A DNA stretch of 64,000 nt from an uncultured Nitrososphaerales archaeon (GTDB taxonomy: Archaea; Thermoproteota; Nitrososphaeria; Conexivisphaerales; UBA164). A model generated the notes under the pieces. It was not told where the DNA came from and did not search any database. It saw nothing but the letters and a program-made list of their open reading frames with translations. The translations under genes and the position numbers were made by a program. The DNA lies in the NCBI GenBank assembly GCA_964342655.1, contig CAYFFZ010000001.1, positions 668 to 64,667 on the forward strand, read 5' to 3'. This document shows, in pieces, positions 2,034-59,715 of this stretch; positions within the stretch are counted from its first letter, which is position 1, and every line of letters begins with the position of its first letter.

Positions 2034-2207
2034 ATGCCGACACACGGAAGTATTACAAAAGCTGGAAAAGTAAGATCACAAACACCAAAATTGCAAGGTA
2101 GGGAAAGACATAACCCTCCACCGCGTATATCTCTAAGGTCTAAATATGAAAAAAGGGTAGAACTAAAAAGAAACCCTGGCCAGAACTGGGTATTCTTAAG
2201 AAAATAA
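2034..2207 (+). CDS. rps30e: 30S ribosomal protein eS30
   Basis: Absent from the ORF track (57 aa). ATG at 2034, TAA at 2205-2207. MPTHGSITKAGKVRSQTPKL matches the eS30 signature HGSLxxAGKVxxQTPK. Confidence 0.85.
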   Translation: MPTHGSITKAGKVRSQTPKLQGRERHNPPPRISLRSKYEKRVELKRNPGQNWVFLRK

Positions 2208-2211
2208 ATTT

Positions 2212-3366
2212 TTATGGTAAAACGGATTCTAATAGTTCCTGTAGCTCTATTTCTGATACGCCTTTAGTCAAGCTCATGCGCCTTTTCTCCAGTACCTTCT
2301 CGAGCTTATGGATTGCATCTACAAGGGAGTTTCTTATGCCCCATCCTTCTCCTGTTACCGATGTCTTTATATAGGGACCGTTTACCTGAATCCTTATTAT
2401 CACGTGGGGTTTACCTCTTTTCTGCTTCTGGTCTCCGCTAACGTATATTGTAATGCTTGAATTCTGCAGAATCCTCATATACTTTCTCGTTAAGCTAAGC
2501 ATTCTGCTTCTTATAGTTTCTGGGTCGTATTCTAGCTCTTCTATAACCCCCTTTCTTGAGAGCTGCAAAAATATTGACGGTTCGTTTACGTTCATCGAAG
2601 CTATCTGCCTAAGAAGATCTTCTTTAGTTACTATTCCGCTCAGGTAACCTTTGTTCGTTACGACAACAGATGAGAACCTGAATTTTTTCATGAGCTCAAA
2701 TGCTTCAAATGCGTTTGAATTTTCCTCTATAGTCTTAACGTCTTCAGTCATTATTGACTTTACAGAACCCTGAGCTATTTCTTTGATTTCTCCGATCGGG
2801 CGGTCCCTTTTCTGTCTGAACTTTGGCTTGATAACTTTCTGTATTATGTCGTGCAGCGTGACAATCCCGACTATCTTTTTACCGTTCATTATTATAACCC
2901 TGGAAACACCTGCATTTCTCATAGTTGATAAAAGCTGCCCAATTGTTGAATCTGCGTCTAAAGTAACTGGATCGGGGGTCATTATGTCTTTAACGGTAAT
3001 ATTCCTGAAAACGTTACGGCTCTGCATAATCACATCATCGGCAAATACACCTCCTCCAAGGGTCCCATCCTGCAAAACATAAGGTAAAGTTTTGAAACCG
3101 CTTTCAACCATTAGCTTGCTCACCTCTTCGATGTTTTCGTTGCCAGAAAGCTTTGGAGCAACCTTCATGAGCGTCTTGACCTTTGTTGTAGCTGGATCGT
3201 AATTGATCTTGTAAGCCAAACTCTCGTTTATTATGCCTTCATATAAAGATCCATTTGAAACAACGATAAGGTCTCTCTGCTTTTCAAATAAATCCTGTAT
3301 TTCTGATATTGTGTTGTTTTTATCAACAGTTATAACGTCTTTTTTTAAAACAGATTCTAAGCTCAT
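2212..3366 (-). CDS. CBS-domain protein (four CBS motifs) with C-terminal HPF/RaiA-like domain
   Basis: 384 aa. It has four CBS-like repeats, e.g. ITVKDIMTPDPVTLDADSTIGQLLSTMRNAGVSRVIIM..GKKIVGIVTLHDI. The C-terminal ~100 aa (nt ~2272-2577) has the beta-alpha-beta-beta-beta-alpha pattern of ribosome hibernation factors (HVIIRIQVNGPYIKTSVTGEGWGIRNSLVDAIHKLEKVLEKRR). Confidence 0.75.
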   Translation of the reverse strand: MSLESVLKKDVITVDKNNTISEIQDLFEKQRDLIVVSNGSLYEGIINESLAYKINYDPATTKVKTLMKVAPKLSGNENIEEVSKLMVESGFKTLPYVLQDGTLGGGVFADDVIMQSRNVFRNITVKDIMTPDPVTLDADSTIGQLLSTMRNAGVSRVIIMNGKKIVGIVTLHDIIQKVIKPKFRQKRDRPIGEIKEIAQGSVKSIMTEDVKTIEENSNAFEAFELMKKFRFSSVVVTNKGYLSGIVTKEDLLRQIASMNVNEPSIFLQLSRKGVIEELEYDPETIRSRMLSLTRKYMRILQNSSITIYVSGDQKQKRGKPHVIIRIQVNGPYIKTSVTGEGWGIRNSLVDAIHKLEKVLEKRRMSLTKGVSEIELQELLESVLP

Positions 3367-3399
3367 GTACAGATTATTGACCTAATACAATAAAAACGT

Positions 3400-3969
3400 T
3401 TATTCTTGTTCGAAAGCTTTTAAGAGCTTTTCCTGAAGGAGCTCAAACTGCTTATAAAGATCTTCAAGGCTTATGTCTTCGTTAACTATCATGAAATCTG
3501 CTGTAGCTATAACTGAGCCTATACCCAGCTCTAGCTCGAGTTTATCCCTTTCCTTGAAGTCATTGAAGTCCTTAGGATCGTCTTCTCTCCCTCTGTTTTT
3601 AAGTAGAAAGAACCTTCTCTTAGGGCTAGCGTGCAGAGCTAAAACTATAATTCTAGCGTTTTTGCTAAAAAAATCGACCTCTGTAGGAGACCTTATTCCA
3701 TCTATTATTATTAGGCTTGAGTTGCTTTTTTCTATCTTTTCAAGAGTGAGCTTTGCAACTATGTCTTTACCGCCTTGTTCTCTTAAGATCTTTACTACCT
3801 TTCTTTGGCCTTCTTTGCTAAGTCCGTAACCCATTTCTATGCTCTTTTCCCTTATGACATTTCCCATAGAAAAAGTTGGAATCCTGAGCTTGCCAGAGAT
3901 GTAAGAAGCTAGCGTCGTCTTGCCCGCACCAGGCATGCCGGTTATGCCTATAATCCTGACATATGCCAA
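3400..3969 (-). CDS. P-loop nucleotide kinase, UPF0200 / dephospho-CoA-kinase-like family
   Basis: 189 aa. Walker A GITGMPGAGKTT near the N-terminus. Size and layout match archaeal UPF0200 kinases. Confidence 0.6.
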   Translation of the reverse strand: MAYVRIIGITGMPGAGKTTLASYISGKLRIPTFSMGNVIREKSIEMGYGLSKEGQRKVVKILREQGGKDIVAKLTLEKIEKSNSSLIIIDGIRSPTEVDFFSKNARIIVLALHASPKRRFFLLKNRGREDDPKDFNDFKERDKLELELGIGSVIATADFMIVNEDISLEDLYKQFELLQEKLLKAFEQE

Positions 3970-4065: not shown

Positions 4066-5184
4066 TTGAAACTTCTGGCTACGACGATAAGGGGTTTTGA
4101 AGAATATTCTGCAAAAGAAGCAGAGCTTCTTAATTGCAAAGCTGTTGAGCTCAGGCAGGCAAGGGTTTTGCTAGAAGGAAACGAAACATGTGTATACATT
4201 TTGAACAATTTTGCCAGAACCGTTAACAAAGTCCTTATACTTCTTAGCAGAGAAACCGTTAATGGGCTTGAAGATATTTATAGAAAAGCCTTATCTTTAG
4301 ATTATACCTTTATAAGACCAGATCAATCTTTCGCTGTAAGATCTGAGAGGAGCGGCTTACATGACTTTACTTCTATAGACGTAGCCAGAGTTGTTGGACA
4401 AGCTGTAATAGACTCCTACATGAAAGATAAAGGGAGCAAGATCAAAGTTGACCTGGAAAATCCTGACGTTGAAATAGACGCTGACCTTATAGGAAACGAG
4501 CTTTTTATAAGTTTGAACACAACCGGCAACGGCCTTAACTTCAGAGAATACAGGACCTACAATCATCCATCTTCACTAAAGCCCACCCTAGCATCATCTT
4601 TGGTGATTATGTCGCAGTGGGATGGTTCAAGCTTAATAGACCCCTTTACTGGCGGAGCAACGATACCCACAGAAGCGGCGCTTTATGCTTTTTCTTCACT
4701 CGTTAGGCCATCCGGAAATTTTAGCTATAAAAAACTGAGCTTTTATGACAGATTCCAAGAAGAACAGGCTTTAAAGAAGATCGGCAAAAAGTTTGATGTT
4801 CAGGAAAAAATCGTTGGTATTGAAATATCTCGCAAGCATTTTACGGGGGCCCTAAAAAATGTGAGTTCTGCAAATCTGAACGAGTATATTGAACTTGTTC
4901 ATGACGATTCGATAAAAATAGATTTACAAAGACGCTTTAAGTTTTTAATATCTAATCCCCCATACGGTATTAGAAGCGGGAGAAAAGAAAAGGTTCTTAA
5001 AATATATGAGCTCTTTGTAAGAAGGCTCGATAAGGTGCTTGAAGAAGGAGGAGAAGGTGTTATGATAACGACTGAATACAAAAAGCTCTTAGATCTTTTA
5101 ACTCAGAGGGGGTACAAGGTACTTAAGGTTAACACTGGACTACACGGAAAGCTATGGGTTGGTGCAATACTTTTCAGATCTTAA
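4066..5184 (+). CDS. THUMP-domain RNA (guanine-N2) methyltransferase, Trm14-like
   Basis: 372 aa with a TTG start. N-terminal THUMP-like region, then a class I methyltransferase with the N-methyltransferase motif ISNPPYGIR. Confidence 0.75.
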   Translation: MKLLATTIRGFEEYSAKEAELLNCKAVELRQARVLLEGNETCVYILNNFARTVNKVLILLSRETVNGLEDIYRKALSLDYTFIRPDQSFAVRSERSGLHDFTSIDVARVVGQAVIDSYMKDKGSKIKVDLENPDVEIDADLIGNELFISLNTTGNGLNFREYRTYNHPSSLKPTLASSLVIMSQWDGSSLIDPFTGGATIPTEAALYAFSSLVRPSGNFSYKKLSFYDRFQEEQALKKIGKKFDVQEKIVGIEISRKHFTGALKNVSSANLNEYIELVHDDSIKIDLQRRFKFLISNPPYGIRSGRKEKVLKIYELFVRRLDKVLEEGGEGVMITTEYKKLLDLLTQRGYKVLKVNTGLHGKLWVGAILFRS

Positions 5185-6719
5185 CCTAAAGACTTTCTCA
5201 AGGTTGCCATTTCGGTTATGTTCTTTATTACTTCTTCATCGTTCTTTTCAATGAAAGCAACTAGCGTAAGGGTAGACAGCAACCTGTGCTTGAGCACATC
5301 GTATCTTTCGCTAGCTTTTTTGAAGCCAAAACATGACTCTATAAAACTGATATCGTTCTTTATCTGCTGAATGATATTTTCATCTACAAGCATCTTTTCC
5401 TTAAGGATCCTGAGGTTTTCTTCTGAAAAATAATTCACGGCCGTCTTAAGGTCTAGGTCAAGGTACCTATAGCTTGAAATAAGCGTGTTCCACTCCTCCT
5501 CGTTAAGCCTTCCTAAAGAAGAAGCTCCAAAGATTTCTGGGGGAAGGCCAAGACTGTAAAGAGCGCTTACAAAAGTTATCGCTCTTGGCAAAGTTATTTT
5601 GCCAGCGTTTCTTGAGTATCCAAAAAGCCCTATGTGGAGCTTCCTTGCTCTCCTTCTTGGTACAAAACCAGAGATCCCGTTTATAAGTGGCGCTAGCCCT
5701 TCTATTATGTTCTGATAAGACCTTGTGTAGGTTTCCATAATCTTTCTGAAAATTTTCTGCTCGTCCGTACTGAGTTCTTCTTTTTCATACGGTTTGCTTA
5801 TGTTGAGAAACCTGATTGCGCTTCTTGCTTCTTCTAAACCATAATCATACCTGAATGCAGACTGCACTGTATAAGTCCATACACCTCTGTATTCGTTAAA
5901 AACGTTTTCAACGTTATTAGGACTTAGATGACCTCTGAAAGGAAGGCTCCCTACACCTATGATGGGATATATTGATAAATGGCGCTCTTCCTCTGTCCTC
6001 CTTAGCTCGCTCAGAGCATTTTTTGCAAGAAGTACAGAGGTAACCATGCCATAGTTCATTGCAGGATCTGACCTTGCAATGAAAACCCTCAGGTAAGACA
6101 CTTTCACTGCATCGATGTACTTTTCGATTATCAACTTTATGTTCAGAAGAGAATCCATGTCCTCTATCAAAGGTATGACTTCAATCCATTTTGGTTTGGT
6201 TTCGCCTATAAGATCCCTAACCTTCAGGTTTTCAGTCAGTTGCATTCCTTCTTTGTTTACTACTGCTTTTTCATAATATTTGGCTAAAGCTATAAGCTGT
6301 TCAGCGTTTGTAGTAAAAGGCAATATAGTTTCGAAAACAGGAACCGTAACGGCTTCCCCATAAAACCTCTCACCAACGTCGTGGTTTATAGGCACGCTTT
6401 CAAGAGTTTCAGCAAATACCTTTCTATCAACGCCTTCTATAAAAGGATTTGGCAACCTGTACGTTAAGTAAATGTGCTTTCCTAGAACGTTGTCCTTAAA
6501 ATATTCAGGGTACATGGTTAAAAGTTTTCTTACGACGTGTGTGTCTACATCTTTCCCTTCTGCGTCCCACATTACTTCTTCTACACCATAAGAAGAGTAA
6601 GCTAGATACGCTTCGTAGACTTCATCGTCTCCTTCTATCGAACCCCTGCCTTTAACCCAGCCAGGCACGTTTGCGTTATCCGGATGCTGGGTTGCCATAG
6701 TTCTTGGGATTTTTCTCAT
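5181..6719 (-). CDS. ppcA: archaeal-type phosphoenolpyruvate carboxylase
   Basis: 512 aa. Hallmark N-terminus IPRTMATQHPDNA of the archaeal PpcA family. Confidence 0.9.
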   Translation of the reverse strand: MRKIPRTMATQHPDNANVPGWVKGRGSIEGDDEVYEAYLAYSSYGVEEVMWDAEGKDVDTHVVRKLLTMYPEYFKDNVLGKHIYLTYRLPNPFIEGVDRKVFAETLESVPINHDVGERFYGEAVTVPVFETILPFTTNAEQLIALAKYYEKAVVNKEGMQLTENLKVRDLIGETKPKWIEVIPLIEDMDSLLNIKLIIEKYIDAVKVSYLRVFIARSDPAMNYGMVTSVLLAKNALSELRRTEEERHLSIYPIIGVGSLPFRGHLSPNNVENVFNEYRGVWTYTVQSAFRYDYGLEEARSAIRFLNISKPYEKEELSTDEQKIFRKIMETYTRSYQNIIEGLAPLINGISGFVPRRRARKLHIGLFGYSRNAGKITLPRAITFVSALYSLGLPPEIFGASSLGRLNEEEWNTLISSYRYLDLDLKTAVNYFSEENLRILKEKMLVDENIIQQIKNDISFIESCFGFKKASERYDVLKHRLLSTLTLVAFIEKNDEEVIKNITEMATLRKSLG

Positions 6720-8358: not shown

Positions 8359-8430
8359 GCCGGGGTGCCGGAACGGCCACGGGTGCGGCTGCAGACCGCA
8401 TTTATGTGGGTTCAAATCCCACCCCCGGCT
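8359..8430 (+). tRNA. tRNA-Cys (GCA)
   Basis: Manual cloverleaf. Acceptor GCCGGGG/CCCCGGC, anticodon stem TGCGG/CCGCA with loop CTGCAGA, T arm GTGGG-TTCAAAT-CCCAC, discriminator T. No encoded CCA and no intron. Confidence 0.9.
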
Positions 8431-18727: not shown

Positions 18728-18801
18728 TGGGCCCGGTGGGACTTGAACCCACGACCGCCCGGTTATGAGCCGGGCGCTCTGCCATCCTGAGCTACGGGCC
18801 C
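18728..18801 (-). tRNA. tRNA with CAT anticodon (elongator Met or Ile2)
   Basis: Reverse complement GGGCCCG-TA-GCTC..GAGC-G-CCCGG-CTCATAA-CCGGG-CGGTC-GTGGG-TTCAAGT-CCCAC-CGGGCCC-A. G1:C72 and the anticodon stem argue against an initiator. Confidence 0.9.
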
Positions 18802-59641: not shown

Positions 59642-59715
59642 CGGGCCTGGAGGGATTCGAACCCTCGACCTACTGGTTAAGAGCCAGCCGCTCTGCCTGG
59701 CTGAGCTACAGGCCC
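59642..59715 (-). tRNA. tRNA-Lys (CTT)
   Basis: Reverse complement GGGCCTG-TA-GCTC..GAGC-G-GCTGG-CTCTTAA-CCAGT-AGGTC-GAGGG-TTCGAAT-CCCTC-CAGGCCC-G. Confidence 0.9.

Follow-up and report, generated by a model that had tools for sequence, protein, structure and literature searches.

A Conexivisphaerales gene very probably encoding an orthologue of HibA/AHA, a ribosome hibernation factor of archaea

The ribosome hibernation factor HibA was defined by Madru et al. (Nat Commun 2026, PMC13324472), who cite the structure 9SR9 and who found the protein by electron cryo-microscopy on 70S ribosomes of stressed Pyrococcus abyssi; it is present in about 47% of archaeal genomes (PMC13324472). HibA's C-terminal domain occupies the 30S subunit's mRNA/tRNA channel, and the module formed by its CBS motifs takes three positions on the 50S subunit, one of them with a long loop (residues 190-207) that wraps around A2834, a universally conserved nucleotide in the peptidyl-transferase centre (PTC; PMC13324472). 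The factor AHA, described independently in Haloferax volcanii by Souza et al. (bioRxiv 2026.02.22.707292, PMC12934967), has two AMP molecules at the junction of CBS3 and CBS4 and a loop 3 of CBS3 that enters the PTC; its knockout shows a phenotype, and the homologues number 3,160 across 17 archaeal phyla (PMC12934967). The subject of the present analysis is a gene at 2212..3366 (-) in a stretch of 64,000 nucleotides (the window) from an uncultured archaeon of the order Conexivisphaerales (contig CAYFFZ010000001.1, assembly GCA_964342655.1), which very probably encodes the orthologue of HibA (= AHA) in this order.

Similarity of the protein to HibA and AHA

The architecture, fold and homology of the encoded protein are those of the HibA/AHA family. 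The coding sequence, the parts of its product and the element upstream of it are the following (aa, amino acids of the protein; nt, nucleotides of the window):

2212..3366 (-): complete coding sequence of the very probable HibA/AHA-family hibernation factor orthologue (384 aa and stop), from the open reading frame, phmmer against PDB and the AlphaFold2 model
3223..3357 (-): CBS1 (aa 4-48), Pfam CBS E=4e-5 as an isolated fragment
3013..3186 (-): CBS2 (~aa 61-118), which diverges most among the CBS motifs, included in the four stretches found by Pfam and present in the AlphaFold2 secondary structure
2833..2994 (-): CBS3 (aa 125-178), with GIVTLHD and the family-invariant G167 and D173, Pfam CBS E=1.9e-15
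2767..2829 (-): basic, extended loop that separates CBS3 from CBS4 (aa 180-200, KPKFRQKRDRPIGEIKEIAQG), from gapless alignment to the loop region of P. abyssi HibA
2602..2766 (-): CBS4 (aa 201-255), with GIVTKED and the family-invariant G244 and D250, Pfam CBS E=2.1e-14
2266..2577 (-): HPF/RaiA-like domain (aa 264-367), from AlphaFold2 secondary structure, Foldseek, profile search and hhalign
2215..2265 (-): C-terminal tail (aa 368-384), of acidic character in the Conexivisphaerales clade and with a short helix, from the AlphaFold2 model (helix 372-382, predicted local distance difference test score, pLDDT, ~62-66)
3389..3396 (-): TATA-like box TTTTTATT, with its centre ~26 nt upstream of the start codon, read from the sequence

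When the protein was compared with all PDB chains by phmmer, the first match was 9sr9_H, the ribosome-bound HibA of P. abyssi, with an E-value of 5.1e-35 and a collinear alignment covering aa 6-361, and the homology to a ribosome-bound member of the family thus extends over the full length. The second best match, chain 9l96_a of 406 aa, showed the same collinear arrangement (E=2e-25), and standalone CBS proteins followed far lower, at ~1e-11, with matches confined to the N-terminal 256 aa. At the level of sequence, all the features that define the HibA/AHA family are present in the protein. The chain 9l96_a (also 9l98, 9l9c and 9l9v) is a solved 'CBS domain-containing protein' that is collinear across both the CBS and the C-terminal parts; with its acidic composition it looks haloarchaeal, and no paper citing PDB 9L96 and its relatives was found in the literature searched.

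Pfam recognised four CBS stretches in the protein (E=1.9e-38), and this together with the match to 9sr9_H bore out the sequence-only reading, which had proposed a hibernation factor made of four CBS motifs fused to an HPF/RaiA-like domain. The N-terminal part is a disc of four tandem CBS motifs as in HibA and AHA (~270 aa). Scanned alone against Pfam, the CBS2 fragment (~aa 61-118) was too weak and gave no match, and its secondary structure in the AlphaFold2 model is CBS-like (helix 79-89, strands 93-97 and 102-108, helix 109-115). The full-length model had a pLDDT of 83.2 and a predicted template modelling score of 0.81 (36-sequence alignment) and was confident across aa 1-256, that is, across the CBS module. 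In Foldseek, the tetrad of the full model matched SriA, the N-lobe of Dri, SSO3205, MJ1225 and AMPK-gamma with target-normalised template modelling (TM) scores of 0.7-0.8. The G-x-x-T-x-x-D strands of CBS3 (G167/D173) and CBS4 (G244/D250) were invariant in an alignment of 36 homologues, which is indirectly consistent with the published nucleotide sites.

Judged by the alignment, the extended CBS3-CBS4 loop (aa 180-200) is the counterpart of the 'PTC loop' of HibA (P. abyssi residues 190-207) and of 'loop 3' of AHA, and the role of such a loop in the PTC is taken from the HibA and AHA studies (PMC13324472, PMC12934967). In the phmmer alignment it is equal in length to the loop region of P. abyssi HibA and aligns to it without gaps, and 35 of the 36 homologues have a loop of 21 aa. 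Its net charge is +4 here as against ~0 to +2 in most homologues of other clades. The AlphaFold2 model presents part of the loop as disordered (pLDDT <50 at aa 185-192), consistent with a flexible loop. The segment KPKFRQKRDRP (aa 180-190), which belongs to this loop, had earlier been read as a linker joining two Bateman modules; the two modules were recovered, but the segment has CBS3 on one side and CBS4 on the other and is internal to the second module, not a bridge from one module to the next.

The C-terminal domain of the AlphaFold2 model consists of beta1 (264-270), alpha1 (282-295), beta2 (304-316), beta3 (319-329), beta4 (334-342) and alpha2 (344-367), and the elements beta1, alpha1, beta2, beta3-4 and alpha2 that had been aligned by eye with bacterial HPF/YfiA match this secondary structure. 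The nucleotide range 2272-2577 given for aa 264-365 was likewise correct in its arithmetic, and the E. coli string quoted for comparison corresponds to RaiA/YfiA residues 52-87, which HMMER aligned to the very stretch proposed. Modelled separately, aa 259-384 (pLDDT 76) took the topology of the full-length model. When this C-terminal model was searched with Foldseek against PDB, ranks 1-26 were all occupied by chains of HPF, RaiA/YfiA/pY, chloroplast pY and RafH, with a best E-value of 7e-5 and target-normalised TM-scores up to 0.83; the low-ranking matches included PelC, dsRBD and histidine-kinase-like folds.

A profile hidden Markov model built from the C-terminal domains of 18 homologues matched P. 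abyssi HibA (9sr9_H) with an E-value of 2.2e-23 and 9l96_a with 6.5e-13, and it also reached E. coli RaiA (E=7e-4) and HPF (E=0.0065-0.014). Aligned with E. coli RaiA by hhalign, the same profile gave a probability of 90% and an E-value of 1.5e-6 over 91 columns, from beta1 to alpha2; the RaiA sequence used agrees with the PDB fragments in the profile-search output. Because profile search, hhalign, Foldseek and the AlphaFold2 topology agree, the C-terminal domain is, on sequence profiles and predicted structure, a homologue of HPF/RaiA, with a likeness far beyond chance. The unrelated C-terminal fold that would have told against the fusion was thus not found by profile search, hhalign or Foldseek.

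The net charge of the HPF core is +9, which fits rRNA binding. Counterparts of both archaeal-specific insertions of HibA (P. abyssi 283-SAL-285 and 324-KFRGVHL-330; Madru et al., PMC13324472) are present, as query residues stand opposite both segments in the phmmer alignment, and hhalign left a gap of eight residues in RaiA opposite GDQKQKRG of the query. The C-terminal domain alone, searched with phmmer against 1.84 billion representatives, gave 14 matches at E<=1e-3. Ten of these were proteins of 376-396 aa matched at their C-terminus, and the other four were proteins of 118-192 aa matched near the C-terminal end or across the whole protein, two of them (118 and 125 aa) consisting of little beyond the HPF-like domain. 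Judging from these searches, the domain is too fast-evolving for the family to be mapped with single sequences, and the spread of the 14 matches agrees with the published picture of fused HibA and rarer standalone HPF/RaiA-like proteins.

Proposed mode of action and alternative explanations

Following HibA and AHA, the HPF domain would be placed in the decoding channel of an empty 70S ribosome and the N-terminal four-CBS disc above the tRNA (A/P/E) sites of the 50S subunit, from where the basic CBS3-CBS4 loop could reach into the PTC. Domain, disc and loop would together keep the empty 70S ribosome inactive and protected in stationary phase or under stress. By analogy with the published homologues the protein is expected to bind ribosomes, inhibit translation and bind nucleotides, and the junction of CBS3 and CBS4 would probably bind AMP in preference to ATP.

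Several observations weigh against this assignment and the mode of action attached to it. The protein shares little identity with P. abyssi HibA, and beyond the immediate clade the nearest homologues in the 36-sequence alignment reach only ~30%. The tail of the Conexivisphaerales-clade protein is acidic: from aa 364 to the end (2215-2275 (-)) it has a net charge of -3 and ends with SEIELQELLESVLP, and many homologues have a YAKDYLRKIG-type tail instead. The Pfam family Ribosomal_S30AE (PF02482), which had been named in advance as the check on the domain, did match the C-terminal 124 aa, but with 15.0 bits (E=0.043) it did not reach the gathering score of 23.7 bits. The binding of HibA to the ribosome did not change clearly with AMP or ATP in the experiments of Madru et al. 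(PMC13324472).

With the full-length protein as query Ribosomal_S30AE gave no match, and NCBIfam has no model for the HPF-like domain (the full protein and the C-terminal 124 aa were scanned). The archaeal HPF-like domain (2212-2586 (-)) is thus left uncaptured by Pfam PF02482 and NCBIfam at curated thresholds. As the S30AE score remains below the cutoff, the sources label such proteins just 'CBS domain-containing protein', and those homologues that carry a source name have only this one or 'predicted transcriptional regulator'.

The labels would suit a generic CBS regulator, either an HhpR-like transcription factor or a metabolic sensor of the MJ1225/SSO3205 type, in which the C-terminal domain would be another small alpha/beta fold with a superficial likeness to HPF; the sub-threshold Pfam score and the PelC, dsRBD and histidine-kinase-like folds among the low Foldseek ranks point in the same direction. 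Such a protein would not be expected to have HPF-family chains in all of the top 26 Foldseek ranks, a C-terminal profile that reaches RaiA and HPF significantly, and a C-terminal domain that by itself matches the domain of ribosome-bound HibA at 2e-23. Moreover, the HhpR model gave 26.5 bits where its cutoff is 520, and the standalone CBS tetrads match the N-terminal 256 aa only. With Foldseek, profile search and hhalign in agreement, a generic CBS regulator is essentially refuted and is considered highly improbable. Still more improbable, and refuted by the architecture itself, is a CBS-only hibernation factor of the Dri or Sri/ARC type, which would block the ribosome with its CBS tetrads. 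The tetrad was in Foldseek nearest to SriA (9znf_4, E=1.4e-18) and to the Dri N-lobe (9e7f_3), in a search of a PDB library to 8 April 2026 from which no 9SR9-series (HibA) chain was returned for either model. However, the protein has one tetrad and an HPF domain in its 384 aa, whereas Dri has two tetrads (655 aa) and Sri/ARC proteins are standalone tetrads of ~260-340 aa, and the sequence comparison favoured HibA (5e-35) over Sri (~1e-10 to 3e-11) and Dri (1.4e-4). The Dri chain 9e6q_3 matched aa 70-188 only (E=1.4e-4), and the Sri chains matched only within aa 5-257 (~3e-11 to 2e-7). The sequence-only reading had mentioned an archaeal hibernation factor with CBS domains, which, to guess from the publication dates, may have been Dri; the protein is not Dri, and belongs to the HibA/AHA family that was published later.

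Of the explanations that keep the protein a HibA orthologue and a hibernation factor, one takes the CBS module as a mere steric plug on the 50S subunit and not as an energy sensor, a possibility that deserves to be taken seriously even if we hold it to be somewhat improbable. Nucleotide was absent from native complexes of P. abyssi HibA with the ribosome, the conformational landscape stayed for the most part as it was under saturating AMP or ATP, and those residues that are conserved in the CBS module belong to its core and not to the contacts with the ribosome (Madru et al., PMC13324472). On the other hand, the CBS module of P. abyssi HibA binds AMP, ADP and ATP with dissociation constants of 12, 65 and 113 uM, respectively, and does not bind GTP (PMC13324472), the two AMP molecules of H. 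volcanii AHA occupy equivalents of the regulatory sites of AMPK-gamma, and the related ARC factors are reportedly released by ATP. A mere plug would also leave the invariance of the CBS3 and CBS4 motifs in the family to be explained. The earlier proposal that ribosome silencing is coupled to energy charge stands in so far as homologues bind AMP, and falls short in that AMP and ATP had no clear effect on ribosome binding in the work of Madru et al., which makes the energy-sensing step uncertain. Energy sensing through AMP/ATP is plausible by analogy, and is not established even for the characterised homologues.

The proteins of the Conexivisphaerales clade might also represent a functional variant of HibA, with their more basic loop, acidic C-terminal helix and conserved 3' abutting or overlap with the convergent eS30 gene. 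They would then either engage the mRNA channel differently or be coupled to the ribosomal protein gene by antisense or transcriptional effects; we regard this as very unlikely. The HibA orthologue remains the explanation preferred here.

Gene start, promoter and genomic neighbourhood

The open reading frame begins with an ATG, upstream of which there are only five in-frame codons before a stop, and in the alignment its start methionine coincides with that of all close homologues. The position of the TTTTTATT box ~26 nt before the ATG suggests a promoter of its own and a leaderless mRNA for the HibA orthologue. A search of the 64-kb window found no further CBS or HPF gene, that is, no paralogue. 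The neighbouring genes referred to below, and the tRNA genes, are:

409-1488: HflX GTPase, TIGR03156 E=3.7e-85 (NCBIfam name 'ribosome rescue GTPase')
1485-1862: aMBF1, TIGR00270 E=1.7e-34
2034..2207 (+): eS30, Pfam Ribosomal_S30 E=3.9e-11
3400-3969 (-): AAA_17/adenylate-kinase-like P-loop protein (189 aa), weak similarity to PRK08356, adk
4066-5184: tRNA m2G6 methyltransferase Trm14
5181-6719 (-): archaeal-type phosphoenolpyruvate carboxylase (PEPC), PEPcase_2 E=9.7e-193
8359-8430 (+), 18728-18801 (-) and 59642-59715 (-): tRNA genes, Rfam

The eS30 gene, which had been said to lie tail-to-tail with the gene studied, was found in that arrangement, convergent with it, the stop codons being separated by 4 nt. 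Translation-related genes (HflX, aMBF1, eS30 and Trm14) surround the HibA gene between 409 and 5184, a block whose synteny is confined to the order-level clade, and the gene of the AAA_17 kinase-like protein lies 33 nt upstream of it on the same strand. Beyond the PEPC gene follow ordinary metabolic neighbours, a nitroreductase-family gene and then a 3-hydroxyisobutyrate-dehydrogenase-like gene. The three tRNA genes were the sole Rfam matches at the gathering threshold in the window.

Related loci were retrieved with an alignment of eight HibA homologues. The closest locus belongs to a metagenome-assembled genome (MAG) of Conexivisphaerales, with a protein 97% identical to the one studied, and the other close loci come from MAGs assigned to Nitrososphaeria or Thaumarchaeota. 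In relatives with at least 67% identity, the block of MarR-like, HflX, aMBF1, eS30, HibA, AAA_17 kinase-like, Trm14 and PEPC genes is fully syntenic. In the clade with 45% identity, eS30 alone is still adjacent and convergent, and HflX, aMBF1 and the MarR-like gene are nearby in a rearranged order. The AAA_17 kinase-like gene is found upstream of HibA only at identities of at least 67%, and it is replaced in the relative with 45% identity. The Aigarchaeota and Caldarchaeum loci contained none of the neighbour genes of the window within the retrieved stretch, and also the adjacency to eS30 is lost there. Since the neighbours change with divergence and are absent from these loci, a functional link between the HibA gene and its neighbours was rejected, and the neighbourhood is read as lineage synteny and not as a functional module.

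Comparison with known hibernation factors

The fusion of CBS motifs and HPF domain was recognised from the raw letters before any search, and this agrees with its discovery by two independent groups, by whom the HibA/AHA family was already published in 2025-2026; the protein described here is an ordinary orthologue. The result has value for annotation, as the name 'CBS domain-containing protein' can be replaced by HibA/AHA-family ribosome hibernation factor, and it indicates that the fused HibA type is the one in use in Conexivisphaerales, an order that has been little studied. As to mechanism, the Conexivisphaerales protein adds nothing new, the question for the whole family being the gating of ribosome binding by AMP/ATP, which lies beyond sequence analysis.

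The closest known system is HibA of P. abyssi (PAB0961, UniProt Q9UYR4; PDB 9SR9-9SRF and 9T7H), with which the protein shares the four CBS motifs, the extended CBS3-CBS4 loop, the HPF/RaiA-like domain and a C-terminal tail, at a length of 384 aa compared with the 392 aa of HibA. It differs from HibA in the more basic loop (+4) and in the tail, which is acidic in the Conexivisphaerales clade, and its source is a Conexivisphaerales MAG and not a member of the Thermococcales. AHA of H. volcanii (HVO_2384, UniProt D4GWN2) is the HibA family under another name, with four CBS motifs and a C-terminal HPF domain; it was compared by its published description, and the present protein keeps the G-x-x-T-x-x-D motifs in both CBS3 and CBS4.

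Bacterial HPF and RaiA (YfiA, pY) and the N-terminal domain of long HPF (PF02482) are homologous at the profile level to the C-terminal domain described here, and they would have the site in the 30S decoding channel in common with it, by homology through HibA and AHA. The domain differs from its bacterial counterparts in being fused to an N-terminal CBS tetrad, in having two insertions, one between beta1 and alpha1 and the other in the beta2-beta3 hairpin, and in its longer terminal helix; unlike long HPF, the protein does not have a dimerisation domain of the long-HPF type.

Among CBS-tetrad hibernation factors, Dri of Pyrobaculum calidifontis (PDB 9E6Q/9E7F) and SriA-D / ARC-A/P of Methanosarcina and Methanolobus have tetrads similar in fold to the one described here (Foldseek E=1e-18 to 1e-13), and in Dri the equivalent loop enters the PTC as it does in HibA and AHA (PMC12934967). 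Neither Dri with its two tetrads nor the standalone tetrads of Sri/ARC have the HPF domain present here, and the phyletic distribution of these factors is reportedly largely complementary to that of HibA/AHA. The eukaryotic AMPK gamma subunit shares the four-CBS disc (Foldseek E ~1e-12), and its adenine-nucleotide sites 3 and 4 match the AMP sites of AHA; it is however part of a kinase heterotrimer, with no ribosome binding, no HPF domain and an identity of just 10-15%.

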